From NCBI GenBank assembly GCA_041659765.1, contig JBAZXR010000001.1:44537-108536 (forward strand): a stretch of 64,000 bases of DNA, read 5' to 3'. The notes beneath the pieces were generated by a model. The model was not told where the DNA came from and searched no databases. It was given only the letters and a program-made list of their open reading frames with translations. Every line of letters begins with the position of its first letter. Position 1 is the stretch's first letter. This DNA comes from Patescibacteria group bacterium. GTDB lineage: Bacteria > Patescibacteriota > Patescibacteriia > UBA9934. Position numbers and translations under genes: made by a program. Of the stretch, positions 20,250 to 60,084 are shown one piece after another.

Positions 20250-23200
20250 TTAAGGAGTCGTAGTTGTGGTTATAGTTGGATCCGTGACAGGTGCCGGCGC
20301 TGGTTCGGTGACTGGTGCTGGATCGGTAGTGGTTGTGGTTGGAGCTGTATCGGTGACGATGGTTGTTGTGTCGAGCGGTGTCGTGATGATGGTGGTATCT
20401 GTTGTTGTGGTTGCTAGAGGATCAACAGCGGTAACGGTCGTGTCGATTGGAACCGTGGTGGTATCCGTGATTGGGGCGATTGAAGCTGTTGTATCGATTG
20501 GGGCGGTAGTAGTGTCAGTTGTCACCGTTTCTACGGGAGCAGGGGTAGGAGCGGGAGCGGGAACAGGGGCAGGAGCAGGAGCAATGGTGGTAGCTGCCGT
20601 GCTCGATTCATCTGTGCGTGCATCAGTGATGGCTAAGGCAACCCAGTTGAACGTGAGATCAGCTGTAGCCGGTGCGTTTAACATGATGGTAAAGCCAGTC
20701 ACATCTTTTCGGCTGACGACTGACTGAATACCGCTACTGAAGTAATTCGCTTCATCAAGCGAGGCAGCTATTTCATCTGGGATCTTCTCAAACGTGACGG
20801 AAGCTTGAACTACCGGGACGACATCATATGGTTTGTCAAAAGTAACCCGAACAAAGGTATCGCCGGAACGAATGACTGCAAAACCACCTGTGTCCTTATT
20901 AAAGTAAGGGCGGCCGATGATGCTCAGGTCACTCAAGATGCTGAGTCGGGCGCCGATTGAGCTGATCGAGTCTACTTGCAAACCACCGGTGAGAGTAGCA
21001 GTTCCGGTCACGTTTAACGTGCCAGGTAAATTAAGGCTAGTTATGGCTAGGCTATTTGATTCCAACGCAATTAAACGGCTCTGAATGTCAGCGATAGCTA
21101 AATTATTGGCTAAAACGCTTGTTTCCATGATGGTTAGGCGTGAATTAAGCCCGTCGAGGCCGGCCGAGAGAGCGTTGGTGACGGTCAGTTCTGCAGCTGT
21201 TTGAGCGGCGAGAGCGGCGGTGATTGTGGTGTTAGCCGTCTCGATCGCGATTGCCAGTTCTTCAGCTGTTACGTAGGCCGGGACGGTTGTAGTTGCCGTT
21301 GCTGGCGCTGTTGAGCCGTTAGTGATCACTGGGTCAGTTGCGCCAGCCACGAGTGGCGCTTCTGGAGCGTAGGAGTTATTTACGAAAGTGAGGACCGTAC
21401 CTAGGCCTTCGCCGGAGAAACCTGATAATGCTTGACCGATGACTCGTCCCTGAAGTGTGGAACGCATGGCGACGCCGGGGGTTGAGGATGCGGTGAGCAG
21501 ATCGCCTGGTTCAATGGGTCCATTTTCGCCCGTCACCTTAACTGGCACACGACCGGAAAGAGCTACCGGCAGAGCGGTGACGCCTTCATCGTCTACACCG
21601 CCCATGACTACGCCTGGACGAGTAGCAATAATTCCGAGCGTGTCGCGCTGATAGGCTGACGTTGTTTTCTTGACGCCTGCTTTGAGCGAGCCATCAAAAG
21701 CGACCACATCACCGGCTTCGATAGTCGAGTCTTTGGTGGTGTAGAATTCGGCCAAGTCAGCTCCAGAATCAATAACTGTAGCGACGGCCATCCCGCCAGC
21801 GGAGGCTCCGGATGCGGTGGATGAATAGGCGCAGAGCGCGTAGGTTTGAACGGCTGCACCGGCATTGGCCACCAGCGCGGCGGCGAAAATTGATGGACCG
21901 TTGGCATTGTTTGCGCTGGTGAGCGCGGCCGTACCGGAGTCAAGGAGCGTACCCGCGTTACACGAGCTGCCAGTTCTGATTTCGGCCGTGACTGTTTGGT
22001 CGGTGTTGCTGAGACTCTTGGTCCATAGATCGAGCGTGACGTAGACGTCGCCAGAAGGCGTGGACGGGGTAATGCTGACGGTGCTAATAAGATTAGCGGT
22101 GGCGCTCGTGGTTCCCGAGAGAGTTGTTTCTGTGAGTGAAGACTTACCGAGTTGCGTATCACCACCCAAACAATTTCTCCAAGCACCATTTTCATAGCAG
22201 CGATACTTATTCATGCTGGCGTTGTAGTACATGGCTCCATTTACGCCGGTGGGATCGCCCGCATCTGTTTTTGTATCAAGAACCAGGAGCGTGCCGGTAG
22301 TATCCGAATTACCGACGGCAACTTTCCCAGTGCCGTTGGGTTTTAACGCCAGGTCTCCATTGCTGCCCGTGGTGACATCAACGGCTCCAGCGCCAGTGTA
22401 AGCTTGGCCATTGCCAATCGTGACGCCGCTTGTGCCGGTTAATAATCCGGCCGAGGTAATAGTTCCAGAGCCGGAGGTTGAAATGTTCGAACTCGTAGTG
22501 ATGTCGCTCGCGGTTGAAATTAGACCGAAGCCGGAGGCGATCGAACCACCCGTTAGTGTGCCAACCGCGGTTAGGCTCGAAGTAATGATTGATCCTGCTA
22601 ATGTTGTGCCGCTCAAATCTCCAGCGGCATTGACTGTGATCGATGCATCCGGGAAGGTGATTGTGCGGTCAGCTGTTGGGTTAGTTATGGCTATGAAGGT
22701 TTCTGAGGTGTCATCAATCGAGCCTTCGAATATCAGTCCAGACATACCAAAGATACCGGCGTTAGCGGCTAGAGCAGGATCGCCAGATAAGGTTTGGGAA
22801 TAATCTAATCCCATGAGTACATCAGAGCCTGAAGGGGTGCTGATGAGTCCGGTTAATGGCGAAGTCGTGACAGACCGAACATATGTGCCGGTTGCGCTAC
22901 TGGTATCCTGACCGACGAACACTCTGATAACTCCTTGGCCACTTGCCCATGAATCAAGCGCCTGACCAATGATTACTCCGCCGCTGGTTGCTTTCATGGC
23001 GAGACCCGGGGTAGAGGAGGGGGAGAGGAGATCGCCAACTGCAACCGGTCCATTTTCATCAGTGATTTTTACCGGCACGCGACCTTTGAGGGCCACATAT
23101 CGTCCATTGGTTGTGTCGCCAGCGCCGGTCGCCTCCGCTATACCGGTGAGTGCTAAACCGGGGTTGTCAGAAATAACCCCGATAGTCAGTGGGTCAGTTG

Positions 23201-26200
23201 GTGACGCCGTTTTTTCAACAAAGAGATTGCCGCTGGCAGAGAGCGCTACTACATCGCCAGCTTGCAGGTTGTCGGCCGGATTCGTGCTGTACATTTCGGC
23301 CAAGTCAGTAGAGGCGGCGGTAAAAGCTTGGGCGAACATAGTTAGCTGAGTCGTGCCGTTGGCTACACAGGCCAGACGACCAATCTGTGTTCCGCCATTG
23401 TTTTGGAAGATGATTCCTTCGGCTTGCGCGGTAGCGCAGGTGCCTTGGCCGGCACTATTAGTAGGCACTCTGATGATTCCAGTATTTCCGGCAGTCCCTG
23501 ATGCTATCTGAATAATACTTCCGGTTGAGGTGATATCAATGGCATGGCCAGTTCCAACATTAATATCAATCGCGGCTCCAGAAGTGAGCGCCGTACCGTG
23601 GATTACCAAGAGGTTGCCGGTGGTAGCGCTGTCTGCTGTCAGGTTAATAAGACCTGCGGTAACGGCTGTAGGCGCATAAACTCCGGTTGTTTGGATAAGC
23701 AATCCGTTGCCGGTGGTCGCGGCTCCCATTTCAATGTCTACCACTCTTCCGGTAGACGCCAAGCTGGCGCCACTACCCGTTAGGAGCATCCCTGCACCTG
23801 AAGTGATAGCGCTGGCAGTTATTGAGTGAGCAGTGGTTGTGGTGCCGGCAAAAGCTTGAGTTACGGCGCCAGTGCTGGCAATTTGATAAAGATCGCCGTT
23901 GCCAACAGTGAAGAGCGAAGCTGGCGTGGTATCGCCGATTCCAATATTCCCCGCGCCAAGAATAGTAAGCCTCGGAGTTCCAAAGCTTCCGGTATACAAC
24001 TGAAGACTTGTTGCGGCTGGAGTTCCTATGAGACCTGTGCCGGTGTTATCAACGGCCAGTTCGATTCCTGGGGTTACAGAGCTGTAAGTGTCATTAAACA
24101 GACCCATGAGGTACGGATTAAAATCGTCCTGATGGAACCCCGCTACGTAGCCGTTTGTGGCCACCGTTCCTCCGTCTATAACGGTGAATCGGTGCGCGGG
24201 TGCGGCGGAGCCAACACCAACAAATCCAGTGGATGTGTCTGCGTATAGTTGATTTGTGTTTACTGCAAAATCACCCGTTGTTGAGAGTACGATGTTCAGA
24301 TTTGAGCCAGCGGCTGGAGTTACCGTCAGGGCTCCGCTGCCGGTTGTAAGGTCACCGCCATTGACGGTGAGATCACCGGTGGCGGTGACATTGCCAGCGT
24401 TCGTAATTATCAGTTGGTCAGTCCCAGCACTATTTTCAAAGACCGCCAGATTTGAAGTCTGCGTAGCATTACCTTGAACAAGCAATTGGATTTCATCCGT
24501 ATCACCATCTATAGAAAACTTGCCAAGCGAAGCGCCGCCAATGCCCACGTTGTCTGTACTTGTCACGAGTGTCACATCTGTTCCACCATCTGTCCAACCA
24601 GCTGCCCCGGTGACGTCAGAGGTGAGGGCAATAGTGCCGGTTGCATCTGGCAATGTCCAAGTACGGCCTGCGGTTAAATCTGCAGAAGTTATAGATCCAG
24701 TAAAACTTGCTGCTGCGCCCGCCGACTGAGGGGTGATCGCTAAAATATCACTGCCAGCTGTAGACGAGCCGAACGTGGCGCTGCTCGTGGTGGTGAGCGT
24801 AGTAGCAACGGTTGAGCCAGCTAGGTTTAGAGTGTCTCCAGACAGACCAAGAGTAATAGTTCTAGCTCCTACTCCTCCAAGGCCATCGCCAGTGGCAGCT
24901 AATGAAAAACCCGTATTTCCGTCAATTTGGAAATTGAGAGTATGTGAGGCCGCGTCAGCTCCGGTTACGCTGATGTTGGTATTGAGGGTTGATTGGTTAG
25001 CGGCAGTGGTAATGGAGGCTAGAGCAACGATGGCACCGGAGGAATCCACTTGAAATAGATCTCCGCTACCAACGGTGAATAGGGAAGCTGGAGTGGTATC
25101 GCCAATACCTATGTTGCCGCCTACTGCAATTCTGATTGCTTCCGCGTTATTTTGGCCAAATATAACCGGATGACTGTCGAGGGTTCCCACCAGTAGCGAA
25201 GTAGTCCCGTTATACCCGAGCACAACCGCCGCGCCTCCGCGGGGGGCTCCAAACATTACTCCGGCTTGGGTATCACCGTAAGCAATTAAAGCCAGTTGTT
25301 TGTTGGAATTGTTCGTCACGCCGAGATACATGTAGTCAGCGGTATTTCCATTTTTAAAAGTTAGAACGTCACCACCGGCTTTGGTTGAGTAAACGTCAAG
25401 CACAGAGGCGGGAGTAGCGGTTCCAATACCCACGTTTCCACTAAAAATTGCCGCATAGTTATTTGTTGCTCCCGAGGCTGTTGCATAGAGGCCGACGTTC
25501 GTTGTGGACGCGCCAGTTTTGGAAAAATAACCAGCGTATCCAGTGCCTGTAATGGCGCCGGAGTGTGACACGTCAAGGCCTTTGGTTGAGGCGGTAGTTG
25601 ATGTTGATGTTATGGAGAAAGCATTGCCTGTTCCAGCATATGACTGGGTTACGGCCCCGGTTCCAGCAATAGCGAAGAGATCAGTTCCCGCACTATTTTC
25701 AAAGACCGCCAGATTTGAAGTCTGTGTAGCATTACCCTGAACAAGCAATTGGATTTCATCTGTATCACCATCTATAGAAAACTTACCAAGCGAAACGCCG
25801 CCAATGCCCACGTTGTCTGTGCTTGTCACGAGCGTCACATCCGTTCCGCCATCCGTCCAGCCAGCCGCCCCAGTGATGTCAGAGGTGAGGGCGATAGTGC
25901 CGGTTGCATCTGGCAATGTCCAAGTACGGCCTGCGGTTAAATCTGCAGAAGTTATAGATCCAGTAAAACTTGCCGCTGCGCCCGCCGACTGAGGGGTGAT
26001 CGCTAAAATATCACTGCCAGCTGTAGACGAGCCGAACGTGGCGCTGCTCGTGGTGGTGAGAGTGACGGCGAGCGTCGTAGCTGCGAGGTTGATGGTATCA
26101 AGCGAGTCGCCAATCGATACGGTGTCGGCATCAGTGTTAGTGGCGAGTGAGAGGGTGTCGCAGGTGGCCGTGTTACAGACGGTCATGGCTGCATTGGTTC

Positions 26201-26444
26201 CGCCAAAGTCAGTGGTAAGCGAGGTAAGAATAGTGGCATCTGCGTCAGGAACGGTAAAGGTTCGGAGGAGTGTGGGTCCGGTGATGGCAAATATTCCGTC
26301 CCCAACGCCGGTCCAAGGATGGCCAGGATTTGGGGTTGTGGCGCGCGCAATTAAAAGACCGGAAAAAGAAAGTCCGATAAGCAAACATGTGCTCCAGAGC
26401 AACCGGAAGGTTTTATTACGAAAACTCATGTTTTTTGCAGGCAA
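20250..26444 (-). CDS. Giant secreted surface protein/adhesin (2064 aa) with internal tandem repeats and Thr/Pro-rich C-terminal stalk
   Basis: N-terminal signal peptide. Thr/Gly/Ala-rich beta-repeat composition. Two near-identical ~130-aa repeats. Two copies of a DLAE[MF]Y..GDVV...GRVPVK[IV]T.ENGP...GDLL..S.TPG.AM module. C-terminal TTTP/PAPAP low-complexity region. Start ambiguous (TTG at 26444 or ATG at 26429). Confidence 0.8.
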   Translation of the reverse strand: MPAKNMSFRNKTFRLLWSTCLLIGLSFSGLLIARATTPNPGHPWTGVGDGIFAITGPTLLRTFTVPDADATILTSLTTDFGGTNAAMTVCNTATCDTLSLATNTDADTVSIGDSLDTINLAATTLAVTLTTTSSATFGSSTAGSDILAITPQSAGAAASFTGSITSADLTAGRTWTLPDATGTIALTSDITGAAGWTDGGTDVTLVTSTDNVGIGGVSLGKFSIDGDTDEIQLLVQGNATQTSNLAVFENSAGTDLFAIAGTGAVTQSYAGTGNAFSITSTSTTASTKGLDVSHSGAITGTGYAGYFSKTGASTTNVGLYATASGATNNYAAIFSGNVGIGTATPASVLDVYSTKAGGDVLTFKNGNTADYMYLGVTNNSNKQLALIAYGDTQAGVMFGAPRGGAAVVLGYNGTTSLLVGTLDSHPVIFGQNNAEAIRIAVGGNIGIGDTTPASLFTVGSGDLFQVDSSGAIVALASITTAANQSTLNTNISVTGADAASHTLNFQIDGNTGFSLAATGDGLGGVGARTITLGLSGDTLNLAGSTVATTLTTTSSATFGSSTAGSDILAITPQSAGAAASFTGSITSADLTAGRTWTLPDATGTIALTSDVTGAAGWTDGGTDVTLVTSTDNVGIGGASLGKFSIDGDTDEIQLLVQGNATQTSNLAVFENSAGTDQLIITNAGNVTATGDLTVNGGDLTTGSGALTVTPAAGSNLNIVLSTTGDFAVNTNQLYADTSTGFVGVGSAAPAHRFTVIDGGTVATNGYVAGFHQDDFNPYLMGLFNDTYSSVTPGIELAVDNTGTGLIGTPAATSLQLYTGSFGTPRLTILGAGNIGIGDTTPASLFTVGNGDLYQIASTGAVTQAFAGTTTTAHSITASAITSGAGMLLTGSGASLASTGRVVDIEMGAATTGNGLLIQTTGVYAPTAVTAGLINLTADSATTGNLLVIHGTALTSGAAIDINVGTGHAIDITSTGSIIQIASGTAGNTGIIRVPTNSAGQGTCATAQAEGIIFQNNGGTQIGRLACVANGTTQLTMFAQAFTAASTDLAEMYSTNPADNLQAGDVVALSASGNLFVEKTASPTDPLTIGVISDNPGLALTGIAEATGAGDTTNGRYVALKGRVPVKITDENGPVAVGDLLSPSSTPGLAMKATSGGVIIGQALDSWASGQGVIRVFVGQDTSSATGTYVRSVTTSPLTGLISTPSGSDVLMGLDYSQTLSGDPALAANAGIFGMSGLIFEGSIDDTSETFIAITNPTADRTITFPDASITVNAAGDLSGTTLAGSIITSSLTAVGTLTGGSIASGFGLISTASDITTSSNISTSGSGTITSAGLLTGTSGVTIGNGQAYTGAGAVDVTTGSNGDLALKPNGTGKVAVGNSDTTGTLLVLDTKTDAGDPTGVNGAMYYNASMNKYRCYENGAWRNCLGGDTQLGKSSLTETTLSGTTSATANLISTVSITPSTPSGDVYVTLDLWTKSLSNTDQTVTAEIRTGSSCNAGTLLDSGTAALTSANNANGPSIFAAALVANAGAAVQTYALCAYSSTASGASAGGMAVATVIDSGADLAEFYTTKDSTIEAGDVVAFDGSLKAGVKKTTSAYQRDTLGIIATRPGVVMGGVDDEGVTALPVALSGRVPVKVTGENGPIEPGDLLTASSTPGVAMRSTLQGRVIGQALSGFSGEGLGTVLTFVNNSYAPEAPLVAGATDPVITNGSTAPATATTTVPAYVTAEELAIAIETANTTITAALAAQTAAELTVTNALSAGLDGLNSRLTIMETSVLANNLAIADIQSRLIALESNSLAITSLNLPGTLNVTGTATLTGGLQVDSISSIGARLSILSDLSIIGRPYFNKDTGGFAVIRSGDTFVRVTFDKPYDVVPVVQASVTFEKIPDEIAASLDEANYFSSGIQSVVSRKDVTGFTIMLNAPATADLTFNWVALAITDARTDESSTAATTIAPAPAPVPAPAPTPAPVETVTTDTTTAPIDTTASIAPITDTTTVPIDTTVTAVDPLATTTTDTTIITTPLDTTTIVTDTAPTTTTTDPAPVTEPAPAPVTDPTITTTTTP
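24410..24800. repeat. Intragenic direct repeat copy 2 (~390 bp) within the giant surface gene
   Basis: The same plus-strand ORF fragments occur at a 1263-bp offset (e.g. VPALFSKTARFEVCVALP, MIAKISLPAVDEPNVALLVVV). Protein repeats differ by only a few substitutions. Confidence 0.75.
25673..26063. repeat. Intragenic direct repeat copy 1 (~390 bp) within the giant surface gene
   Basis: Near-identical to 24410-24800; the period of 1263 bp equals 421 codons. Confidence 0.75.
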
Positions 26445-27871: not shown

Positions 27872-30800
27872 ATGCCTGAACCATGGTTGCCTTTTTTTGC
27901 AAATCATCGGCTTCACAGAATCATTCTCCTGATTCTCGTAGCAATTACGGTGCCGATGCTCAGTGTCTCGCTTTTTCTGAATCAAGTGTTGGCGGTCACT
28001 CGGACTTGGGATGGCGGGGGGACTGACGGAACATGCGGAGGCGGGGCAGGGGACGGTAATAAATGGTCCTGTGCGGCTAACTGGTCTGCGGACACGGTTC
28101 CTGTTTCCGGAGATGTCGTGGTTTTTGACGGGACGTCTACCAAGGATTCAACTATTGATGCTGGTTTTGCAGGGACCATCACTAGCTTGAGTATTAATTC
28201 TGGTTACACCGGAACGATTACCATGGCGCGTTCGTTAACGATGACGAGCACATATACCCAAGCCGACGGTACATTTTCGCAGGGTGCTCAGACACTCACC
28301 ATAGCCGGCAATTTTGCTCACACCGCCGGTACATTTAACGCAAATACCGGAACTGTCGTTTTGACTGGGGCAACCCCGACACTTTCTGGATCCACGACAT
28401 TTAACAATTTGTATGTAGCTACCACCACCACTAGTGATGTCACGCTAACTTTGCCAGCTTCGACTACTACAGTAGTTTCAGGTGCAACGCGATTGCTGGC
28501 GAGCACGCACAGTGATCCAGTGGTGAATATCCTGACAATTGTCAGCAGTTCCTCGGGTGTCCAGGCGAGTGTGGACTTTCAAGGAAGCCTCACGATTTTT
28601 TCGGCGCACGTGAAGGACGTTAACAACATTAACGCTACGCAAGTCCACTGTTATGTTGATTGTGTTGATGACGGAAACAATACGAATATTCGTTTTGGCG
28701 AGCCGGGGCTAGCTCGGACCACGGTTTCTGGCAATGTGACTGAAGCTGGGTCAACCGCCACATTTACCGTGGCGCTTCGTGGCAAGCCAACGGCGAACGT
28801 CATCGTTCCGCTTTCGGTGTCTGACGCTACGGAGGCAAGCGTGTCACCAGCCTCGCTGACGTTCACCGCTTTAAATTACACTACTCCGCAGACGGTGACC
28901 GTTACAGGAGTTGACGACTCAGAGGATGACGGGGGAGTCTCTTCGACAATTGTCTTTGGCACAGCTACTAGCGTGGATTCGCTGTATGGGGTATTGGATG
29001 CTTCGGATGTATCTATTTTTACCGAGGATGATGATCAGCTGGCTGCGCTCGTTGATTTTGATAATGCGGCCTTGTTAACGGAAGAAGACGTGAAGGGAAC
29101 AGCCGTTTGGTTTGATCAGACAAACCAGGGCGAGGGCACATTGAAAACCGGCAGCGGCGGAGCGGCGGTGAGTCTTACCGGAACAAAAATACTTCCAGGT
29201 TGCCGCGCGACTATTGGCGGAGTAGATTTCATTATTTCTCGTTTAAGTCCCACGGTGACTGGCCAGGTACTTTTAACTGATGGTGTGACTCGTCCTGAGA
29301 ATCTTCATCTGGTGTTGGCTGACGGAGCCGTTACAAAAATTGTTTGCACTATAAAGCCGGTGAATGATGTTCAATTAGGGGGTAGTTCATCAAGCATCGC
29401 GGTTCGAAGCACATTGTTTCCAGGCAGCGGTTACACGGAGGGGCGGGTTTTTACTGACAATACGAATGGACGTGTGTGGTTTACACAAACGAACTCCTTG
29501 CCTGCGCTGAAAGGGATTTCTATGACGACCGGGCTTGAGACCATCAGTACGGCGCTGACGGGAGAAACTGGTAATGCTGTAATCAGCCATGACTCTACGC
29601 GTGACACGTTGTGGCTTTCCGAGTATGCCTTAAACAAAGTTGTAGCTATTAATGCAGCCACGGGTGCGTACGCGTTTGGAACGCTCGGCGCGAGTAGTTT
29701 TACTATCGCTGGTTCCCCGTGGTCGATAGCCTATAACCCTGAGTTAGACGAAATTTGGGTTCTAACAAACGACGGCCATGAGGTAAAAAGAATCAATCCT
29801 GCTGATGGAGCGGTGGTCGGCACCGTGGCGCTCAGTTTTAGTCCTAATAGAATAGTTTATGACTCTACCCAGCATGCCATGTGGGTTGAAGTTGATAATA
29901 CGTACAGCAGCTCACTTATAAAATTATCAGCCACTTCTGGTACTTTTGCGAACGTAACTGAGTCTGCAAGTTTGTTTCCGGTGCCGGATGTTTCCGCCAG
30001 CGATTACGGCAGCCTGCTTTATGACTCATCGAGGAATGTTCTTTGGGAGACGTCATATCGGGAGGCCGATGGTGTTGATAAACTGAACAAGATTGACGCC
30101 TCTACGGGAGCCGTGATCGGCTCGTATCCAACCGGTGCGTTCACTAATGCGGCCGCCCTGGATCCTGTAACCGGCAATGTGCTCGTCGCGTACTCAAATT
30201 ATGTTACCCCGCCCGCAGAGGGCGGTTCGGCTGGCGTAATGGAGTTTGACGCGGCTACGGGAGAACGGATCGCTACCTACACATCGTCTACCGGTCTCGT
30301 TCAGAGTATGGCGCGCGGAACAGGGAATATCAACTGGATTCTTGACATTATTGAGAATGAACTGAGTCAATCCGTTATCGGCGGTGCGCCAGTCGGGAAG
30401 TTTTATACCACGCTTACTACATCTTCTTCTGATGTAGATATTGCGAGCGGCTCAACTCTTTCCTCGGTTTCTGCCTCGGCAAGCGAGGCCGGAGAAATTG
30501 TTTCTTTTGCCCTCACCTTTGATGGCGGAAACAGTTACAAGGTTTATGGTTCATGGCGCGTGATCGCTTCTAATAAAGCAGGAGACCACGGAGGTACTGA
30601 CGGTGTTTGGTATTACCGGGATGATGCGGACGCATGGACAGCTGCACCGAGCAATGCTCCGGCCGAAGCAGTATCTCTGGCTGTAGAAAACGGCCCGACA
30701 CATAACCGTATGACGGCCGGTACGTTAAACGGTTTGGGTGAAGATATTTTTCAGCAGGCTGGCGGTTTCTCAACCTCCACTACTTCTGTCGGGGTTTCGG

Positions 30801-31567
30801 TTACGTTATCTACGGCGGACTCATCGCATCATCCAAGCGCAGATACAGTGACCTTTAATTTTGCACCCGCTCCGACTCAGCGAGGCACGCCCGGTACCGG
30901 GACTCCTGGAGGACTGCCGCCGGTCACTGCCCCTACCCCTGAGACGCCAGAGCCGTTGCCAGAGCCGTTGCCGGAGATCGTTACGCCTATTAGTTCTTTT
31001 CCGGAGGGTACCACTCTCGTACCGGGCGACTATGTACGAAGTCTGAGTTCTTCGACCGTGTATTTGATCACCTCCGCGGGCACGCGCCGGCCGTTTATGA
31101 ATGCGAAAGTATTTTTCACTTATATCTCGGACTTTTCGGCGGTGAAATTCGTGAGCGATTCGTTTATAGAGGCCTTCGTTGATGGCCAGCCGATGCCGCC
31201 AAAACCAGGAACTGTCCTCGTGAAAACGCCGAGCTCTGACAGGGTGTATGCGTTTGCACCAGAGGCGACTATTGAACATCCAGAAATCCGTTGGATTCAG
31301 GGCGAATCTCTCGCTCGAAATTTCTTTGGCCTTAACTGGGCTGACTATGTGATTGATCTTGACCAGCCGGCCATTGACCAGCTGCCTGTGGGCGAACCTC
31401 TGACGGAGACTGATGTTGTGGACTCGACTCAATTACTGCGCCGAGTAGATTTGGCTAGACGGGTTAGCGAGTTCATCAATTTTGCCTCTGTTCATCTTCC
31501 AGGCCTAGTTGAATGGGCTTCGATTGATACCGTTCACTTCCCATTCTGGCCGAAGTTCCACAAGTAA
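27872..31567 (+). CDS. Large secreted protein (1231 aa) with autotransporter-type PATR-like N-terminal motif, Calx-beta-like segment and YVTN-type beta-propeller repeats
   Basis: N-terminal TM/signal. RTWDGGGTDG...W..ANWS...PVSGDVVVFDG fits the passenger-associated repeat pattern. VTVTGVDDSEDDG is Calx-beta-like. Repeated ..LW/VW..... N.V..I...TG.. blocks. Pro-rich linker and unknown C-terminal domain. Confidence 0.7.
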   Translation: MPEPWLPFFANHRLHRIILLILVAITVPMLSVSLFLNQVLAVTRTWDGGGTDGTCGGGAGDGNKWSCAANWSADTVPVSGDVVVFDGTSTKDSTIDAGFAGTITSLSINSGYTGTITMARSLTMTSTYTQADGTFSQGAQTLTIAGNFAHTAGTFNANTGTVVLTGATPTLSGSTTFNNLYVATTTTSDVTLTLPASTTTVVSGATRLLASTHSDPVVNILTIVSSSSGVQASVDFQGSLTIFSAHVKDVNNINATQVHCYVDCVDDGNNTNIRFGEPGLARTTVSGNVTEAGSTATFTVALRGKPTANVIVPLSVSDATEASVSPASLTFTALNYTTPQTVTVTGVDDSEDDGGVSSTIVFGTATSVDSLYGVLDASDVSIFTEDDDQLAALVDFDNAALLTEEDVKGTAVWFDQTNQGEGTLKTGSGGAAVSLTGTKILPGCRATIGGVDFIISRLSPTVTGQVLLTDGVTRPENLHLVLADGAVTKIVCTIKPVNDVQLGGSSSSIAVRSTLFPGSGYTEGRVFTDNTNGRVWFTQTNSLPALKGISMTTGLETISTALTGETGNAVISHDSTRDTLWLSEYALNKVVAINAATGAYAFGTLGASSFTIAGSPWSIAYNPELDEIWVLTNDGHEVKRINPADGAVVGTVALSFSPNRIVYDSTQHAMWVEVDNTYSSSLIKLSATSGTFANVTESASLFPVPDVSASDYGSLLYDSSRNVLWETSYREADGVDKLNKIDASTGAVIGSYPTGAFTNAAALDPVTGNVLVAYSNYVTPPAEGGSAGVMEFDAATGERIATYTSSTGLVQSMARGTGNINWILDIIENELSQSVIGGAPVGKFYTTLTTSSSDVDIASGSTLSSVSASASEAGEIVSFALTFDGGNSYKVYGSWRVIASNKAGDHGGTDGVWYYRDDADAWTAAPSNAPAEAVSLAVENGPTHNRMTAGTLNGLGEDIFQQAGGFSTSTTSVGVSVTLSTADSSHHPSADTVTFNFAPAPTQRGTPGTGTPGGLPPVTAPTPETPEPLPEPLPEIVTPISSFPEGTTLVPGDYVRSLSSSTVYLITSAGTRRPFMNAKVFFTYISDFSAVKFVSDSFIEAFVDGQPMPPKPGTVLVKTPSSDRVYAFAPEATIEHPEIRWIQGESLARNFFGLNWADYVIDLDQPAIDQLPVGEPLTETDVVDSTQLLRRVDLARRVSEFINFASVHLPGLVEWASIDTVHFPFWPKFHK

Positions 31568-40485: not shown

Positions 40486-41031
40486 ATGAACATCGTCGTC
40501 TTACTTGGTACGGTTCGTAAAGGTCGTCAATCAGAAAAACCGTATAGAGTTATTTTAGATCTATTAAAAAAGAAAGGCGCTGAGGTGGTTGCGGTCGATT
40601 GCGCTGACCTCGACTTGCCGAGATTTGACGGCGAACGCTATGAACACGCAGGCGTAAAACTGCTCACGAGTGCGGTGGCCGCTGCTGACGCAATTATTGT
40701 TGTCACACCGGAATACAATCATTTCATTCCCGGGGTTCTGAAGGATGCGATTGATTTCTGTAGAAAGCGCGAAATCATGAGTAAGCCGTTGGCGACTGTT
40801 GGTGTCTCGAGTGGTGCGTTCGGGGGAGTGCGGGCTATTAAACAGCTCGAGGCTATTTGGATCGGTAGTAAGGGGATTGTCTTGCCGGTCTTTTTGCCAA
40901 CACCGATGATCGAACAATTCGATGAACAGAACCCTCCTACGGATTGGTTGGCAAAGGCAGAATCTTTTGTAGATCTCGCCATTCAAATGTTCACTGTTAT
41001 TGCTGAGGGAAAGAAAATCGTTGCGAAATAA
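40486..41031 (+). CDS. NADPH-dependent FMN reductase family protein (flavodoxin-like fold)
   Basis: 181 aa; VVTPEYNHFIPGVLKDAIDF signature. Confidence 0.75.
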   Translation: MNIVVLLGTVRKGRQSEKPYRVILDLLKKKGAEVVAVDCADLDLPRFDGERYEHAGVKLLTSAVAAADAIIVVTPEYNHFIPGVLKDAIDFCRKREIMSKPLATVGVSSGAFGGVRAIKQLEAIWIGSKGIVLPVFLPTPMIEQFDEQNPPTDWLAKAESFVDLAIQMFTVIAEGKKIVAK

Positions 41032-41032
41032 T

Positions 41033-42331
41033 ATGAACATTTTGAAAGTCACGGGTGGAAAACCGCTTCACGGTTCAGTCAAAATTGCCGGTGCAAAGAA
41101 TGCCGCATCAAAAATGATGATCGCGTGCTTGCTGACTGCTGACGAAGTCACGCTCGAGAACGTGCCACTGCAGCAGGAGTCTGAAATCGCTCGCGAACTC
41201 ATTACCATGCTCGGCGCGAAGACTGAACTAGTCGACCACACCCTGAAGATTCAGGTGAAAGAGATCGCTACGACTTCAGCTATGCAACTGTCACGCAAGA
41301 ACCGCCTGGCGATTCTCGCGCTTGCGCCGTTGCTTCATCGTGCGGGGGAGGGCTATGTCCCAACCCTCGGTGGCGACAAAATTGGGCCTCGACCAGTGAA
41401 TTTTCATATTGATGTCCTTGAGAAAATGGGTGCAACTATTGAAGCGGATACTGAAGGGTACCGAGCAACGGTGAAAGGCGGTCTCAAAGGAACGCTGATT
41501 GAACTGCCATATCCATCAGTAGGTACGACTGAAACTGCGATTTTGGCTGGCGTGCTCGCGAAGGGTCGAACAGTGATTAAGAACGCGGCCATTGAATCCG
41601 AGATTCTCGATCTCATTTTGATGCTCCAGAAGATGGGCGCGATTATTGAGATGGGTGCTGGTCGTCATATTGAAATTACTGGGGTCGAAAAATTGCACGG
41701 CTGTACGCATCGCATTTTGCCGGATCGTATGGAGGCGGCGAGCTATGCTTCAATGGCACTTGCGACTCGTGGTGAGATCTTCTGCGAGGGTGCAGAACAT
41801 CGAGATATGATCACTTTTCTGAATGCTGTCCGACGAATGGGCGGGGAGTACGTTGTTGAAGAAAGCGGTATTCGTTTTATCGGCTCAAAGAAATATAACG
41901 GTTTGCAGATTGAAACCGATACGCATCCCGGTTTTATGACTGATTGGCAGCAACCGCTTGTCGTGGCGTTGACGCAGGCCGAGGGAACGAGCGTGGTACA
42001 CGAAACGGTTTTTCAGGAAAGATTCGCGTACGCAGAAGAACTCGTAAAGATGGGCGCGGATATTACGTTGTTCGAGAATTGTCTCGGCGAGGTGTCATGT
42101 CGCTTTAAGGACCAGAATTACAAGCACTCCGCAGTCATTAAGGGACCGACGGCGTTGAAGCCTGCGACTGAACTTAAAGTGCCAGATATCCGTGCTGGTC
42201 TTGCATATGTCATCGCCGCGCTCGTTGCTGACGGGGAGTCGACGCTGACTGGCATCGAGCATCTTGAGCGCGGGTACGAGGATTTGTTTGGTAAGCTTCG
42301 ATCAGTGGGTGCCGATATCTCTGTTGAATAA
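41033..42331 (+). CDS. murA: UDP-N-acetylglucosamine 1-carboxyvinyltransferase
   Basis: MNILKVTGGKPLHGSVKIAGAKNAA N-terminus; EPSP-synthase fold; ATG 1 nt after the upstream stop. Confidence 0.9.
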   Translation: MNILKVTGGKPLHGSVKIAGAKNAASKMMIACLLTADEVTLENVPLQQESEIARELITMLGAKTELVDHTLKIQVKEIATTSAMQLSRKNRLAILALAPLLHRAGEGYVPTLGGDKIGPRPVNFHIDVLEKMGATIEADTEGYRATVKGGLKGTLIELPYPSVGTTETAILAGVLAKGRTVIKNAAIESEILDLILMLQKMGAIIEMGAGRHIEITGVEKLHGCTHRILPDRMEAASYASMALATRGEIFCEGAEHRDMITFLNAVRRMGGEYVVEESGIRFIGSKKYNGLQIETDTHPGFMTDWQQPLVVALTQAEGTSVVHETVFQERFAYAEELVKMGADITLFENCLGEVSCRFKDQNYKHSAVIKGPTALKPATELKVPDIRAGLAYVIAALVADGESTLTGIEHLERGYEDLFGKLRSVGADISVE

Positions 42332-43206: not shown

Positions 43207-43641
43207 ATGCCCACCATCAATCAACTCATTAGAAAGGGCCGTACGTCTGCTAAGCGCAAGAGCAAGTCTCCGGCCATGCAGTACACGCACGATTCCCTGC
43301 ACCGTTTGCGCACCGTTCTCCCTAAGGGGGCTCCGTTTAAGCGCGGCGTGTGTGTGAAGGTCACCACCATGACTCCAAAAAAGCCAAACTCGGCTTTGCG
43401 TAAGATTGCGCGTATTCGCCTTTCTAACGGCACGGAAGTCACGGCCTACATTCCTGGCGAAGGTCACAACCTCCAGGAACACTCCATTGTTATGATTCGC
43501 GGCGGACGTGTGAAGGACCTTCCTGGTGTGCGTTATCACATCGTGCGCGGACGCTATGACGCCACCGGCGTTGAGGGCCGCAACCGTAGCCGTTCACTGT
43601 ACGGTACAAAGAAACCAAAGGCTGCCAAGGCAAAGAAGTAA
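43207..43641 (+). CDS. rpsL: 30S ribosomal protein S12
   Basis: [12 protein letters not shown]...; 144 aa. Confidence 0.95.
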
Positions 43642-43724: not shown

Positions 43725-44192
43725 ATGCGTGGTAAAGCTGCTGTTAAGCGCGTTCTCATTCCCGACTTTAAGTATGGGAATGTTTTGGTTGCAAAGCTCA
43801 TCAATTACGTCATGAAGGATGGTAAGAAGTCTACGGCCGAACGGGTCGTGTATGATTGTTTTGCGATTGTTGCCGAGGAAACAAAAGAAGACCCAATGGT
43901 TGTCTTTGATAACGCTCTCAAAAACATCACGCCAACCGTTGAAGTGAAGAGCAAGCGCGTTGGTGGTGCTAACTACCAGGTGCCTATGCCGGTTCGCGGT
44001 GATCGCCGCTACGCTTTGGCGTACCGCTGGCTCCTGGACGCCGCTCGCGGCAAGAAGGGCAAGCCAATGGCCGAGAAGCTCGCAGAAGAGATTATGCTCG
44101 CCGCTAAGAATGAAGGTGACTCCGTGAAGAAGCGTGCCGACGTTCAGCGTATGGCTGATGCCAACCGTGCCTTCGCTCACTTCGCTCGGTAA
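43725..44192 (+). CDS. rpsG: 30S ribosomal protein S7
   Basis: 155 aa S7 family. Confidence 0.95.
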   Translation: MRGKAAVKRVLIPDFKYGNVLVAKLINYVMKDGKKSTAERVVYDCFAIVAEETKEDPMVVFDNALKNITPTVEVKSKRVGGANYQVPMPVRGDRRYALAYRWLLDAARGKKGKPMAEKLAEEIMLAAKNEGDSVKKRADVQRMADANRAFAHFAR

Positions 44193-44204: not shown

Positions 44205-46307
44205 ATGAACCGTGATTATCCGTTAGAGCGAGTTCGCAACATCGGAATCATTGCGCACATTGACGCTGGTAAGACCACTACCACAGAGCGCGTGCTTTTC
44301 TACACCGGTAAGAAGCACAAGATTGGCGAAGTGCATGAGGGCGAAGCCACCATGGACTGGATGGAGCAGGAACAGGAGCGCGGTATCACTATTACGGCTG
44401 CGGCTACTACCTGTTTCTGGAAGGATCACCGCATTAACATTATTGACACCCCAGGACACGTGGACTTCACCGTTGAAGTTGAGCGTTCTTTGCGCGTGCT
44501 TGATGGCGGCGTGACCGTTTTTGACGGTGTGGCTGGCGTTGAACCGCAGTCAGAAACCGTGTGGCACCAGGCTGATAAATACGGCGTGCCACGCGTTTGT
44601 TATATCAACAAATTGGACCGCACGGGCGCAGACTTCTATAAGGACTTGGCGAGCATTCACGCCCGCCTCTCTACAAACGCACATCCTATTCAGTTGCCGA
44701 TTGGCGTTGAATCTGATTTCGTGGGTTTGATCGACCTTTTCACCCGCAAGGCCTACATCTATAAGGATGACCTCGGAAAAGAAATTGACGAGATTGAAGT
44801 GCCGGAGGAATACAAAGAGAAGGTTGAGAAGTTCCGCGCACAGCTTGTAGAGGCTTGTGTTGAGCATGATGAAACACTCATGGAGCGTTTCTTTGCTGGC
44901 GAAGAAATTTCTGTCCCAGAACTGAAGGCCGCGCTTCGCAAGGGCGTTATTGCCATGAAAGTATTTCCGGTTATTTGTGGTTCATCCTTGAAGAACAAGG
45001 GCGTTCAGCAGATGCTTGATGCGGTTGTCGATTTCCTACCGTCTCCGCTTGATCGTCCGGCCATTTCTGGTTTTAATCCGGACAATCCAGAGGAGTTGAT
45101 TGAATGTCCAGCTAAGGATGACGCACCATTTGCGGCGCTCGCCTTTAAGATTGCCGCTGATCCATTTGTGGGCAAGCTTGCTTTCTTCCGCGTGTACTCT
45201 GGCTCTGTGAAGTCTGGTTCATACATCTTGAACTCTTCTACCGGTGAGAAGGAGCGCTTGTCCCGCATTGTCCGCTTGCACGCTAACTCGCGTGAAGAAG
45301 TGGACCAGGTGTATGCCGGTGAAATTGCCGCTGCCGTAGGTTTGAAAGGCACCGCTACCGGTCAGACGCTCTGTGATCCGGATCACCCAATTGTTCTCGA
45401 GTCCATCACCTTTGCTGCTCCGGTTATTTCCCAGGCTGTTGAACCAAAGACGAAGGGCGATCAGGAACGCATGGGCATGGCACTTGGAAAACTCATGGAA
45501 GAAGATCCTACTTTCCATGTGAACACTGATCCCGATTCCAATCAGACGATTATTGCAGGCATGGGCGAGCTTCACCTTGAAATCATGGTGGATCGCATGA
45601 AGCGTGAATACTCGGTCGAAGTGAACGTCGGCAAGCCACAGGTAAGCTACCGTGAAACCATTCGCGCTTCAGCTGAAGGTGAAGGACGCTACATTAAGCA
45701 GTCTGGTGGTCGCGGTCAGTATGGTCACGCATGGTTGCGTGTAGAACCGTTCATTGATCCTGAAGGCGAGAACTTCGTCTTTGAGGACGAGGTGAAGGGC
45801 GGTGCAATTCCGCGCGAGTTCATTACCCCAATTGGTAAGGGCGCGCGTGAAGCGTGTGATCGCGGTGTGTTGGCAGGCTTCCCACTCATTAACATCAAGG
45901 CCACTGTTTTTGACGGTTCGTACCATGATGTTGACTCTAATGAAGCCGCCTTTAAGATGGCCGGCTCCATGGCTTTCCAGGCAGCTATTAAGAACGCTAA
46001 GCCAGTCTTGCTCGAGCCAATCATGAAAATCGAGGTGGTAACACCAGAAGACTTCATGGGTACAGTGGTTGGAGACTTGAACAGCAAGCGCGGACAGATT
46101 CAGGAGATGGGCGATCGCGGAAACATGAAGACCGTCCGCGCTCTTGTGCCTCTCGCTGAAATGTTCGGCTACGCTACAAACCTCCGTTCGTTGACCCAGG
46201 GTCGCGCCTCCTCCTCCATGGAGTTTGGCGAGTACCAGGAAACCCCACGCAACGTGACGGAAGCCATTATCAAAGAAAGAACGGGCAAGCTATCAGAAAG
46301 AGTGTAG
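44205..46307 (+). CDS. fusA: Elongation factor G
   Basis: 700 aa; [21 protein letters not shown]. Confidence 0.95.
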
Positions 46308-46310
46308 GAA

Positions 46311-46346
46311 AAAGCAAAGCACCCCTCACGGGGTGTTTTTGCTTTA
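46311..46346 (+). terminator. Intrinsic terminator after fusA
   Basis: AAAGCAAAGCACCCC-TCAC-GGGGTGTTTTTGCTTT. Confidence 0.7.
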
Positions 46347-46398
46347 CAAAAGCTAAGTTTTTTGCTAGAGTTGCCGGTCCCTTTTATTGGAGGTAAAC

Positions 46399-46818
46399 GT
46401 GGACGAACCAACGTTTCTTGTTGTCGATGACGACCAGGCTAAGCTAGCTGGCGCCGTGGAGGTGGTGAAGGAGATTTTTCCCGGAGCGGATATCAAAGAA
46501 AGGCTCATTGGGTTCATGGAACCGTGGACCAGGCAGACGCTCGCGGAATATGTCCGTACCGAGGATCGTGACGTGGTCATCATGGACAATAGCTTGGGAA
46601 TGGTCTTGGGTGGTTCGATCGGCGGACCTCTCAGGAAGATGCTCGGTCCTGACCATTCCATGGAGCTCGTGATCTATAGCGGGGATCTCTCCGCTTGGAA
46701 GGGCTCACCGTTCGCCGGCGCACTTGGCCGTCTGGGCTGGCATTACGGAGCAACGCGTAAAGACGAGTTGCGGGAGACGCTCGTACAGTTGCGTCAAGAC
46801 AAGTTCTCAGGCAAATAG
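46399..46818 (+). CDS. Single-domain CheY-like receiver protein (degenerate), GC-rich insert gene
   Basis: GTG 4 nt after GGAGGT. FLVVDDD N-terminus, VVIMDNSLG at the phospho-acceptor position, VIYSGD and a conserved-Lys-like AWKG. Local GC about 60%. Confidence 0.5.
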   Translation: MDEPTFLVVDDDQAKLAGAVEVVKEIFPGADIKERLIGFMEPWTRQTLAEYVRTEDRDVVIMDNSLGMVLGGSIGGPLRKMLGPDHSMELVIYSGDLSAWKGSPFAGALGRLGWHYGATRKDELRETLVQLRQDKFSGK

Positions 46819-46918
46819 CGTCGTTCGGATCCCGTCGTTGGCTTTGTGCCGACGGTGGGATTTTACTTTCCACCTATTTTTTTGACTTTGCGCACCTGAG
46901 TGTCTAAGCTTTCCGCAT

Positions 46919-47389
46919 ATGCAGAACTCCCAACTTGATCGATTGCTGAAATTAGCCAAGCGAACGGGCGACCGTCTCATAGTCACGAGTAATGACGGCG
47001 CCGAGCCGGTGGTCATCCTTCCGCTCGCTGAGTACGAAGGCATGTTAGACGCTATGACCTTTTTTCGCAGCGAAAAAGGGGGGAGCTCCAATCCCGCGTT
47101 TGAGGAAAATACAAACAACGAAGGCGGGTTTGACGCAGATGTTGAGAGAGGTCACGTGAGAAATGCCGTTACTGCTGAGGAGGCCGAAGGGGACTTCGAT
47201 CCGGTGGCTCTTGAACGCCAGGTAATGGCCGCCATGAACCGGGAGGAGCCAGAGGTCGTGCCGGTCGAAACTTCAGCAGAAAGCCAGGCTACGCCAGTTC
47301 CGGAAGAAACCACAAGAAAACCCATTACTCGTAAGGTAAATCAGCCGGAAGACGGGGGAGAAGAGCGGTTCTATCTGGAAGCAGTGTAA
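46919..47389 (+). CDS. Phd/YefM-like antitoxin-domain protein with acidic C-terminal extension; no cognate toxin gene adjacent
   Basis: N-terminus LAKRTGDRLIVTSNDGAEPVVILPLAEYEGMLD matches the YefM/Phd fold pattern. TTGACT-17-TAAGCT promoter ends about 10 nt before the ATG (leaderless). Confidence 0.45.
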   Translation: MQNSQLDRLLKLAKRTGDRLIVTSNDGAEPVVILPLAEYEGMLDAMTFFRSEKGGSSNPAFEENTNNEGGFDADVERGHVRNAVTAEEAEGDFDPVALERQVMAAMNREEPEVVPVETSAESQATPVPEETTRKPITRKVNQPEDGGEERFYLEAV

Positions 47390-47529
47390 ACATTGGGGTT
47401 CTTCGTCCACCCAGCCCCTTGCGCGTTTTACTGAGCTTTGTTACACTCCTCCCGCATTTAAATCTTAGTATTTCATCATTCTTTGCGCCTTTTCTCCTCA
47501 CCCGGGGAAAAAACGCTCCATAAACTTGT

Positions 47530-48723
47530 ATGGCAGAGCAATTTGTGCGTGAAAAGCCACACGTTAACGTTGGCACTATTGGTCACGTTGACCACGGCAA
47601 GACCACTACGACCGCTGCTTTGACTGCTGTTTCAGCAGCCCGCGGCCTCGGTAAGACTAAGTCTTACGCTGATATCGCCAAGGGCGGTACGGTTCGTGAT
47701 GCGTCCAAAATCGTGACTATCGCTACCAGCCACGTTGAGTATTCCTCAGCCAAGCGCCACTACGCGCACGTTGACTGTCCAGGACACGCTGATTATGTGA
47801 AGAACATGATCACGGGTGCTGCTCAGATGGACGCCGCAATTTTGGTGGTTTCCGCCGCTGACGGTCCAATGCCTCAGACTCGCGAGCACATTCTTCTCGC
47901 TCGCCAGGTTGGTGTTCCGTACATCATCGTCTTCTTGAACAAAGTTGACCTTGTTGATGATCCAGAACTCCTTGACCTCGTTGAACAGGAAGTTCGTGAC
48001 CTTTTGACCAAGTACCAGTACCCGGGTGACACCACGCCAATTATCCGCGGTTCCGCCTCTAAGGCGCTTGAGAACCCAGCTGATGATACGGCTGCTAAGC
48101 CAATCCTTGATATTATCAAGGCCTTGGATGAATACGTTCCAGATCCAGTTCGTGATACCGAGAAGCCATTCTTAATGTCAGTGGAAGACGTGTTCTCCAT
48201 TGAAGGACGCGGTACGGTGGTCACCGGTCGTATCGATCGCGGTGTAGTTAAGGTAAACGACGAAGTTGAAATCGTTGGTCTTAAGGATACCCAGAAGACG
48301 GTAGTCACTGGCATCGAAATGTTCAACAAGTCCCTTGATTCCGGTATGGCCGGAGATAACGCCGGTGTTCTGTTGCGCGGCGTGAAGAAGACGGACGTTG
48401 AGCGCGGTCAGGTACTGGCCAAGCCAGGTTCCGTGACCCCTCACACTAAGTTTGAAGCTGAAATCTACGCTTTGACTAAGGAAGAGGGTGGTCGCCACAA
48501 GCCGTTCTTTAAGGGCTACAAGCCACAGTTCTACATCCGCACTACGGATGTAACCGGTGAAATTGAGCTCCCAGCAGGAACCGAGATGGTTATGCCAGGA
48601 GACACGGTTAACTGTGTCGTAACCCTCATGAGCACGGTTGCTCTTGAAGACAAGATGCGTTTCGCTATCCGCGAGGGTGGCCGCACGGTTGGTGCTGGTG
48701 TGGTTGTAAAAATTATTGAATAA
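47530..48723 (+). CDS. tuf: Elongation factor Tu
   Basis: 397 aa; [21 protein letters not shown]. Confidence 0.95.
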
Positions 48724-59532: not shown

Positions 59533-60084
59533 ATGCATAGAATATTCATCTTGGGGCCGCAGGGGAGTGGGAAGGGGACGCAGGCCAAGAAATTGTCAGC
59601 CTTCCTCGGGATACCGTACCTATCCATGGGCGATCTTTTGAGAGAAGAGGCAAAGGGAGAGGGCGAGCTTTCTCAAAAGGTGCGGGCAATCGTGGAGACT
59701 GGTAGTTTAGTATCGGACGTTGTGGCTGAAGCAGTACTCAGGAAGCGTTTGGCAGAGCCGGATGTGGCGAATGGATATATTTTGGACGGCTTCCCGCGGA
59801 ACTTTGAACAGATGAAGGCGTTTGTGGGATTTGATCAACCAACAGCAGTTATCGTGATCGACATACCAAAGCGTGAATCACGGGCTCGCTTACAGAACCG
59901 AGCAATCACGGAAGGCCGCACGGATGACACACCAGAGGTCATCGAGAAACGACTCGGCATCTATAGTACAGATACCGTTCCGATTATTGAGGAATACAAG
60001 AAGCTTGGTGTCGTGCGAGAAGTTGACGGGATGGGAACCATTGAAGAAGTAGCTGAGAGAATTCAACGGCTTTTTGTTTTATAG
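59533..60084 (+). CDS. adk: Adenylate kinase
   Basis: GPQGSGKGTQA P-loop; GYILDGFPRN. Confidence 0.9.
   Translation: MHRIFILGPQGSGKGTQAKKLSAFLGIPYLSMGDLLREEAKGEGELSQKVRAIVETGSLVSDVVAEAVLRKRLAEPDVANGYILDGFPRNFEQMKAFVGFDQPTAVIVIDIPKRESRARLQNRAITEGRTDDTPEVIEKRLGIYSTDTVPIIEEYKKLGVVREVDGMGTIEEVAERIQRLFVL

Follow-up and report, generated by a model that had tools for sequence, protein, structure and literature searches.

The window analysed here is a stretch of 64,000 nucleotides (64 kb) from the chromosome of a Patescibacteria group bacterium of Candidatus Uhrbacteria (assembly GCA_041659765.1, contig JBAZXR010000001.1, positions 44,537 to 108,536), in which the elongation factor genes fusA (EF-G) and tuf (EF-Tu) are separated by two open reading frames (ORFs), designated ORF1 and ORF2. 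ORF2 (46919-47389, + strand, 156 amino acids) is identified as a member of a lineage-wide, vertically inherited protein family that is encoded upstream of tuf in every related locus with enough flanking sequence. It keeps the core of the Phd/YefM antitoxin fold, has lost the DNA-reading head of those proteins and has no toxin gene as a neighbour, and it is therefore best described as antitoxin-derived and not to be filed as a type II antitoxin. The explanation favoured for the locus as a whole, to which we give about an even chance of being correct, is that the fusA-tuf interval is native DNA, that ORF2 is a domesticated, toxin-less antitoxin derivative acting as a partner-binding dimeric adaptor, and that ORF1 is a receiver-like protein occupying a variable slot.

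For annotation, this means that a sub-threshold 'antitoxin' match beside tuf in Uhrbacteria is neither the remnant of a toxin-antitoxin (TA) module nor a foreign islet; it marks a family that is unnamed and lacks a dedicated Pfam or NCBIfam model. With its truncated core, long acidic tail, invariant tip, strict linkage to tuf and predicted leaderless expression, ORF2 offers a case of antitoxin domestication that is open to test, in organisms whose genomes are so small that the genes they keep probably matter. ORF2 belongs to a known fold superfamily; new are its architecture, its genomic fixation and its probable role, and no paper on the family was found in the literature.

ORF2 is fixed upstream of tuf

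A word-indexed search returned 26 close homologues of ORF2 and, in every contig that was looked up, the homologue lay between fusA and tuf-rpsJ. Thirty-three Patescibacteria loci with ORF2, most of them labelled Candidatus Uhrbacteria or Patescibacteria, were found among genomes sampled at one per GTDB species, and a metagenome scan seeded with distant members added 80 further loci; tblastn with the proteins of the window recovered the same gene order in all of them. The synteny sample comprises 113 loci with enough flank, some of which are duplicate contigs, and ORF2 lies upstream of tuf-rpsJ in every one (113/113). In these loci EF-G is 64-97% and EF-Tu 72-96% identical to the window proteins. 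An earlier note on this DNA had taken the separation of fusA from tuf as a sign of horizontal acquisition, a view that the related genomes do not bear out.

The tuf start lies a median 148 bp beyond the ORF2 stop codon, and this distance falls within 81-255 bp in 111 of the 113 loci, whereas the gap between fusA and ORF2 ranges from 30 to 3053 bp and exceeds 500 bp in 41 of 55. The region 5' of ORF2 thus tolerates insertions, which hardly ever occur on the side facing tuf. Only in L044 (4381-5815) and L058 does an insertion, of 1.43 kb, part the two genes, and the largest + strand ORF within it encodes 158 amino acids.

All named members of the family come from Candidatus Uhrbacteria (NCBI phylum Candidatus Uhriibacteriota) or from unclassified Patescibacteria, and they are called 'hypothetical protein' or, once, 'Antitoxin' (UniRef). 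A Uhrbacteria-type locus was also seen in third-party annotation (TPA) metagenome-assembled genomes (MAGs) titled 'uncultured Gammaproteobacteria bacterium' (L007, L016, L018, L023, L026, L035-L037 and L044); as their EF-Tu is 76-95% identical to that of the window, these taxonomic labels look wrong.

The ORF2 family ends in an invariant tip on a variable acidic linker

ORF2 is a genuine gene of a large family: an exhaustive HMMER profile search retrieved 1139 cluster representatives at E ≤ 1e-3, of which 199 reached E ≤ 1e-10, and the family amounts to at least 150 clusters at 50% identity. The protein begins with an N-domain (residues 1-50; 46919-47068, + strand) that forms the helix-strand-strand-helix core of the Phd/YefM fold, and within it R15-T16-G17-D18-R19, I21, T23, G27, Y39 and E40 are invariant in the family alignment. 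The linker that follows is 40-169 residues long, contains 27% Asp plus Glu and 10% Pro, and varies freely in both sequence and length.

The motif [DE][DE]xFY[LMIV][DE] is found 2-3 residues from the C-terminus in 139 of the 150 best representatives, most of the remainder having close variants, and the family consensus of the tip is GEE[QRK]FYLEP[IV]E, with E148, F151, Y152 and E154 invariant. In ORF2 itself the alignments place the motif, GGEERFYLEAV, at 47354-47386 (+ strand), and no further copy was found in the window. The linker is predicted to be disordered except for an amphipathic helix, FDPVALERQVMAAM (residues 95-106; 47201-47236, + strand), which is conserved in the close clade and falls in blocks of mean predicted local distance difference test score (pLDDT) 71-77 in the AlphaFold2 (AF2) model. 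A large sister clade carries IWxxMxPAGxxxETWDL in place of FDPVALERQVMAAM, followed by an amphipathic stretch; a longer form of this element with two tryptophans, DIWxxMxPAGxxxETWDLxxMSxEE..LExQY, was observed mid-linker in about 40 of the 150 representatives (among P0053-P0168).

An antitoxin-like core without the DNA-reading head

No dedicated Pfam or NCBIfam model matches ORF2. It does match the Pfam family of the Phd/YefM antitoxins, PF02604, at E = 6e-6 with 26.4 bits, under the curated cut-off of 29.8. Positions 12-63 of the model align with residues 5-57 of ORF2, and positions 1-11 have no counterpart. The match is a property of the family, as 23 of 23 diverse members match PF02604 at E ≤ 0.01, the best at 1.2e-7. 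TIGR01552 matches ORF2 weakly (E = 0.027), and a profile search of PDB sequences reached YefM at E = 0.74 only. The AF2 model places helices at residues 4-16 and 36-49 and strands at 20-22 and 31-33, all at pLDDT 70-84, the rest being disordered bar the one linker helix. With this model the best Foldseek matches in the PDB are RelJ, YefM and Phd, which superpose with a root-mean-square deviation of about 2 Å over 41-48 residues at E-values of 0.3-1, insignificant when taken alone. The YefM/Phd assignment made in the earlier note thus holds as a remote resemblance, by virtue of the PF02604 match and the structural matches, with a score under the family cut-off.

The nearest match outside the family in the genome scan was a full-length YefM from Micromonospora (L039, 78 bits). 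Residue 21 of ORF2 corresponds to residue 27 of this protein; the start of ORF2 is thus offset by 6 residues, the Arg10 position aligns with Ser4, and strand β1 is accordingly missing from ORF2. Measured against the canonical S1-H1-H2-S2-S3-H3 fold, both strand β1 (S1) and helix H1 are missing and the core is present. In Staphylococcus aureus YefM, the GTAC operator is read by Arg10, Thr7 and Tyr14 (PMC8717551). Neither the profile nor the alignment with YefM reveals in ORF2 the operator-reading N-terminal strand and helix that supply Thr7 and Arg10.

Compared with the antitoxins of PF02604, as in YefM-YoeB and Phd-Doc, ORF2 has the same small N-terminal α/β core, including EPVVILPLAEYE, which is identical in Micromonospora YefM, the same disordered C-terminal part, and the same position as the first gene, directly 5' of the gene in the 'partner' slot. 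It differs in that β1, H1 and the DNA-reading Arg10 are absent, that tuf lies downstream instead of a toxin gene, and that its tail is at least 100 residues long, acidic, proline-rich and closed by the invariant GEExFYLEP end. Furthermore, its gene occupies one chromosomal site lineage-wide, whereas those of the antitoxins are patchy and mobile, its mRNA is predicted to be leaderless, and its score lies under the gathering threshold.

A proposed adaptor role for ORF2

The proposal advanced here is that the ORF2 family derived from a Phd/YefM-type antitoxin of which the helix-hairpin-helix core was kept. The ancestor would have lost the DNA-reading N-terminal strand and helix, together with the toxin gene, and gained an acidic, proline-rich, disordered linker of 40-170 residues ending in GEE[QRK]FYLEP. 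The N-domain, which is a dimerisation fold in relatives, would dimerise ORF2 and thereby present two tails, and these could capture a conserved protein through the C-terminal and linker motifs, much as antitoxin tails wrap toxins. Judged by position the likeliest partner would be EF-Tu, tuf occupying the canonical toxin-gene slot, although another translation component encoded in the str/S10 cluster may be bound instead, and binding would buffer, chaperone or regulate the partner. An adaptor is preferred to a classical repressor because an invariant tip is combined with a free linker, a second motif is conserved within that linker, the DNA-reading head has been lost and the protein is acidic.

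The claim that the tail, by means of the GEExFYLEP tip and the linker motif, binds EF-Tu or another translational GTPase or translation factor is a tentative one and considered less likely than not. Position offers a single clue to the partner, the unbroken linkage to tuf. EF-Tu is phosphorylated by Doc toxins, which pair with Phd; this is suggestive, but it could be a coincidence. The architecture also recalls the C-terminal tail of SSB and the P1/P2 stalk tails of archaea and eukaryotes, which likewise join a folded, oligomerising N-domain by way of an acidic disordered linker to a short conserved C-terminal tip, acidic with aromatic and hydrophobic residues. P1/P2 stalk tails recruit translational GTPases, and ORF2 is flanked by genes for elongation-factor GTPases, but there is neither a sequence nor a fold relationship, the N-domain of ORF2 being antitoxin-like.

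Several points weigh against the adaptor proposal. The PF02604 score is under the cut-off and the Foldseek E-values are not significant by themselves. Both the dimer and the binding of a partner are inferred, as is the choice of partner, which, whether EF-Tu or another protein, derives from gene position and the analogy with antitoxin tails. The monomer AF2 model does not bear on possible docking of the C-terminal motif onto the N-domain. Gene order in the str-S10 region is in any case stable across bacteria, and the linkage of ORF2 to tuf may in part reflect this inertia. The possession of its own promoter, and in some clades of its own terminator, means that ORF2 is not obligatorily co-expressed with tuf. 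Finally, ORF2 may bind nucleic acid, given that R8, R15 and R19 remain.

Were EF-Tu or another translation protein the partner, ORF2 would serve the core translation machinery as an accessory factor specific to this lineage. It could then be a dedicated and abundant buffer, chaperone or regulator of EF-Tu, made from a leaderless mRNA in bacteria with reduced genomes, and would represent the first antitoxin scaffold domesticated as a core translation accessory factor, an echo of the Phd-Doc-EF-Tu axis.

Expression signals and a possible role as transcription factor

ORF2 is preceded by a predicted near-consensus promoter, TTGACT (46882-46887), a 17-nt spacer and TAAGCT (46905-46910), with 8 nt between the -10 element and the ATG (46882-46918, + strand). 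No Shine-Dalgarno sequence precedes this ATG and, given the short distance, the ORF2 mRNA would be leaderless or have a leader of at most 3 nt. The arrangement is a family trait: TTGAC[AT]-16/17-TA[AC][AG]AT ends 8-10 nt 5' of the ATG in nearly every member, including nearly all of 32 genome loci and, by a strict pattern, 29 of 53 metagenome loci, to which about 10 with a CAAAAT-type -10 element can be added; in a smaller number of loci this promoter stands roughly 30 nt further 5'. The start codon was ATG in all 85 of the loci inspected, which fits leaderless initiation. The promoter of leaderless type reported in the earlier note is confirmed. In several clades, though not in the window, an intrinsic terminator separates ORF2 from the tuf promoter. 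ORF2 would thus form a transcription unit of its own, with read-through into tuf possible in the window.

The separate promoter that had been proposed for tuf, TTGCGC-17-TACACT, is likewise well founded: it lies at 47419-47447 (+ strand), has a TG at 47439-47440 that would make it an extended -10 promoter, and has counterparts of the form TTGCG/TTGCA-17-(TGn)TACACT/TATACT in the majority of the related loci. The tuf 5' untranslated region (47448-47529, about 85 nt) lacks a Shine-Dalgarno sequence before the ATG and contains a hairpin (47485-47516, + strand) with a minimum free energy of -16.5 kcal/mol (z = -2.05). Many related loci (L001-L125 region) have a hairpin of different sequence equally far from the tuf ATG. 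No Rfam family matched the intergenic regions at E ≤ 0.1, and a known RNA element was accordingly rejected.

These signals bear on a further reading, in which ORF2 is a transcription factor: a dimer of the N-domain would bind its own promoter and/or the tuf promoter, 30 bp past the ORF2 stop codon, the tail would bind a co-repressor, and the tuf-S10 unit would come under feedback control. The fold family does bind DNA, as the PF02604 and structural matches and the YefM work indicate (PMC8717551), and three basic residues, R8, R15 and R19, hardly vary or do not vary at all. Genes for local regulators usually lie beside their targets, the tuf promoter region is conserved beyond the hexamers, and a near-palindrome, TTCCGCATATGCAGAA, extends across the ORF2 start codon in the window. 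However, the strand and helix with which YefM reads DNA through Thr7 and Arg10 are absent from ORF2, and the protein is strongly acidic. Arg31 of Escherichia coli YefM, a second DNA-contact residue, corresponds by the residue offset to position 24 of ORF2, which is occupied by Ser in the window protein and by Asp in the majority of members (IVTD). The -35/-10 spacers vary freely between loci although the N-domain is invariant. The inverted repeats of the window are not kept elsewhere, and no palindrome conserved across the loci was found that could serve as an operator. A role as transcription factor is considered doubtful. The earlier suggestion of a repurposed regulator may still hold, but its DNA-binding version is weakened by the missing N-terminal strand and Arg10.

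One other repeat was observed here, a 13-nt inverted repeat (85% complementary) that pairs the last codons of ORF2, GGAAGCAGTGTAA (47377-47389), with the -10 region of tuf, TTACACTCCTCCC (47441-47453). It brackets the tuf -35 element and, judging by the intergenic sequences of other loci, is probably due to chance.

Less likely readings: self-complementation, degradation or antitoxin activity

The invariant tip could alternatively serve ORF2 itself, either as an intramolecular or inter-subunit strand that replaces β1 or as a protease degron, which would make ORF2 a self-contained oligomeric or short-lived element. The fold does lack β1, the last residues are modelled at pLDDT 68 compared with 51-57 for the preceding linker, and antitoxins are classical protease substrates (PMC8717551). 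Yet AF2 predicts neither a strand nor docking for the motif, a tether that varies between 40 and 170 residues would be an odd means of supplying a core strand, and the second conserved motif in the linker suggests multivalent partner binding instead. This possibility is rated as distinctly unlikely.

Slightly less probable still is that ORF2 represents a genuine type II antitoxin, whose toxin is encoded elsewhere in the genome or which neutralises incoming toxins, such as the EF-Tu-targeting Doc-type kinases of hosts, competitors or phages. The Phd/YefM resemblance, the single family member named 'Antitoxin', the disordered C-terminal region typical of antitoxins and the action of Doc, the partner of Phd, on EF-Tu would all agree with it. 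The genomic context does not. In the Micromonospora control a YoeB toxin gene (110 bits) begins at the stop codon of yefM, whereas no adjacent gene for a cognate toxin (YoeB, Doc or similar) was found beside ORF2, tuf being next downstream in 111 of 113 loci. No toxin family was present in the Pfam-annotated neighbourhoods of related loci or among ten small ORFs of the window (64 kb of an 897-kb contig) compared with Pfam, and a nearby toxin partner was rejected on these grounds; the earlier observation that no toxin gene adjoins ORF2 is upheld. Moreover, tails that bind toxins are exceeded 3-4 times in length by that of ORF2. A patchy, mobile distribution is typical of TA modules, but ORF2 is fixed at one site lineage-wide and absent from mobile-element collections.

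The fusA-tuf interval is native DNA

On the + strand the gene order is murA, M50 peptidase, rpsL, rpsG, fusA, ORF1, ORF2, tuf, rpsJ and rplC, with murA at 41000-42331, rpsL at 43207-43641 and rpsG at 43725-44192. The upstream anchor, fusA (44205-46307, + strand), is an ORF of 700 amino acids whose orthologues in related loci have EF-G Pfam domains; tuf (47530-48723, + strand), the downstream neighbour of ORF2, encodes 397 amino acids. The rest of the window carries core genes of the usual kind (IF-2, RNase Y, LeuRS, ComEC, glutamate dehydrogenase and MgsA). The layout reported earlier, with fusA and tuf split by two ORFs and fusA followed by a terminator-like hairpin, is real.

The interpretation then placed on this layout, a GC-rich insert of about 60% GC against a background of about 45-50%, does not survive direct counting. 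The 1222-bp fusA-tuf stretch has a GC content of 52.8%, which falls at the 72nd percentile of same-size windows (mean 51.6%, standard deviation 2.0), and even the richest 300-bp window within it reaches 58%; ORF1 and ORF2 have 55.8% and 54.1%. With the other 63 ORFs of the window as the reference for codon choice, synonymous codon usage is ordinary in both (z = 0.0 for ORF1 and -0.1 for ORF2), and GC content at third codon positions (GC3) is mildly raised in ORF1 (z = +1.8) and typical in ORF2 (z = +0.1). A GC-rich island is ruled out by these counts and codon statistics. No relatives of ORF1 or ORF2 were found in the phage, plasmid and IMG/VR viral-contig collections, and neither a tRNA gene at the locus nor direct repeats flanking the stretch were detected, so a mobile origin was likewise rejected.

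The fusA-tuf interval is thus native, vertically inherited DNA. A recently acquired, foreign, GC-rich 1.2-kb insert that split the fusA-tuf operon and delivered a receiver gene together with an orphan antitoxin is so improbable that it can be set aside: fusA and tuf are adjacent in most bacteria, the GC3 of ORF1 is somewhat raised, ORF1 is limited to three related contigs and genes clearly come and go in the fusA-ORF2 gap, but composition and codon usage are typical, every related locus has ORF2 at this site down to about 64% EF-G identity, ORF1 shares only about 33% identity with its positional orthologues where the flanking genes are 95-97% identical, mobility genes, tRNA genes and flanking repeats are absent, and the phage, plasmid and viral collections hold no relatives. 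For ORF2 the synteny in related genomes refutes it outright. The earlier note had itself held that the same genes at the same position with native composition in relatives would tell against horizontal acquisition, and for ORF2 this is what was found.

ORF1 and a variable slot between fusA and ORF2

The fusA gene is followed by a terminator-like hairpin, CACCCC-TCAC-GGGGTG and then TTTTTGCTTT (46320-46345, + strand), recognised in the sequence and, for the stem, also by a scan. A promoter-like site for ORF1, TTTACA-17-TAGAGT preceded by TG (46343-46371, + strand), is a pattern match from a consensus scan. ORF1 (46399-46818, + strand, 139 amino acids) most likely starts at GTG 46399, since GGAGG (46389-46393) lies 5 nt upstream and the Joint Genome Institute (JGI) gene call agrees on 139 amino acids; an alternative start is TTG 46387, and the GGAGG falls inside this longer reading. 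A second terminator-like hairpin, GGTGGG...CCACC (46854-46874) with a T-run, follows ORF1 (46854-46884, + strand; scan and sequence).

The predicted fold of ORF1 makes 'degenerate single-domain receiver', as it was called in the earlier note, a fair description. AF2, working from a three-sequence alignment, predicts a (βα)5 fold of five strand-helix units (pLDDT 83.5; predicted template modelling score 0.82), and the top Foldseek matches in the PDB are the receivers RcsB, ARR1, GacS D1, RR468 and CheY4 (E about 1e-4, probability 1.0, TM 0.6-0.7). When compared by hhalign with the receivers of CheY, Spo0F, PhoB and NarL, ORF1 gave a probability of 88.9% and E = 2.4e-6. As in CheY-like receivers (PF00072), an acidic pair or triad follows β1, an Asp ends β3 and a Ser/Thr ends β4: all three members keep D10-D12 and D63, which align with D12/D13 and D57 of CheY, and S94 aligns with T87. 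Other features set ORF1 apart from these receivers. The conserved Lys after β5 (K109 of CheY) is replaced by Ala within an invariant YGA, Pfam Response_reg gave no match even at E ≤ 10, and a profile search of PDB sequences reached receiver domains at E = 0.12-0.7 only. The receiver call therefore holds for the fold and the Asp pocket and fails on the Pfam match and the Lys. No histidine-kinase domain was found among the ORFs of the window scanned against Pfam.

In a collection of 5.8 billion proteins the ORF1 family has three members, all at the same position in closely related contigs; they occur in L001 (600-1016) and in L002 (5446-5868)/L008, and ORF1 is replaced or absent in other clades. 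These positional orthologues are about 33% identical to one another, whereas EF-G and EF-Tu on either side are 95-97% and ORF2 65-73% identical, which argues that ORF1 is old and fast-evolving and not a recent arrival. ORF1 would accordingly be pictured as a degenerate, rapidly evolving single-domain protein of receiver type, with a promoter, a Shine-Dalgarno sequence and a terminator to itself. A functional pairing of ORF1 with ORF2 was rejected, as ORF1-like genes stand beside ORF2 in one small clade only.

The gap between fusA and ORF2 is a hotspot of clade-specific genes. Depending on the clade (L002-L038, L046-L125) it holds ORF1-like genes, a family of ORFs of 395-428 amino acids, another of 324-334 amino acids, a minus-strand TrmB-family gene, others, or nothing, and ten slot genes from other clades that were scanned against Pfam matched no family. 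Different Uhrbacteria clades thus appear to fill the slot with different lineage-specific genes, or with none, and the gap could serve as a marker for gene gain in Patescibacteria.

Other features of the window

Two very large ORFs with hydrophobic N-termini lie at 20250-26444 (- strand, 2064 amino acids) and 27872-31567 (+ strand, 1231 amino acids), and neither has a Pfam match at E ≤ 1e-5. There are apparently two adenylate-kinase-type genes, at 6637-7365 and 59533-60084 (both + strand). For the one at the end of the ribosomal protein cluster the assignment rests on the N-terminal sequence; the second, of 242 amino acids, has an ADK domain (E = 1.6e-29) behind an N-terminal extension of 65 residues.

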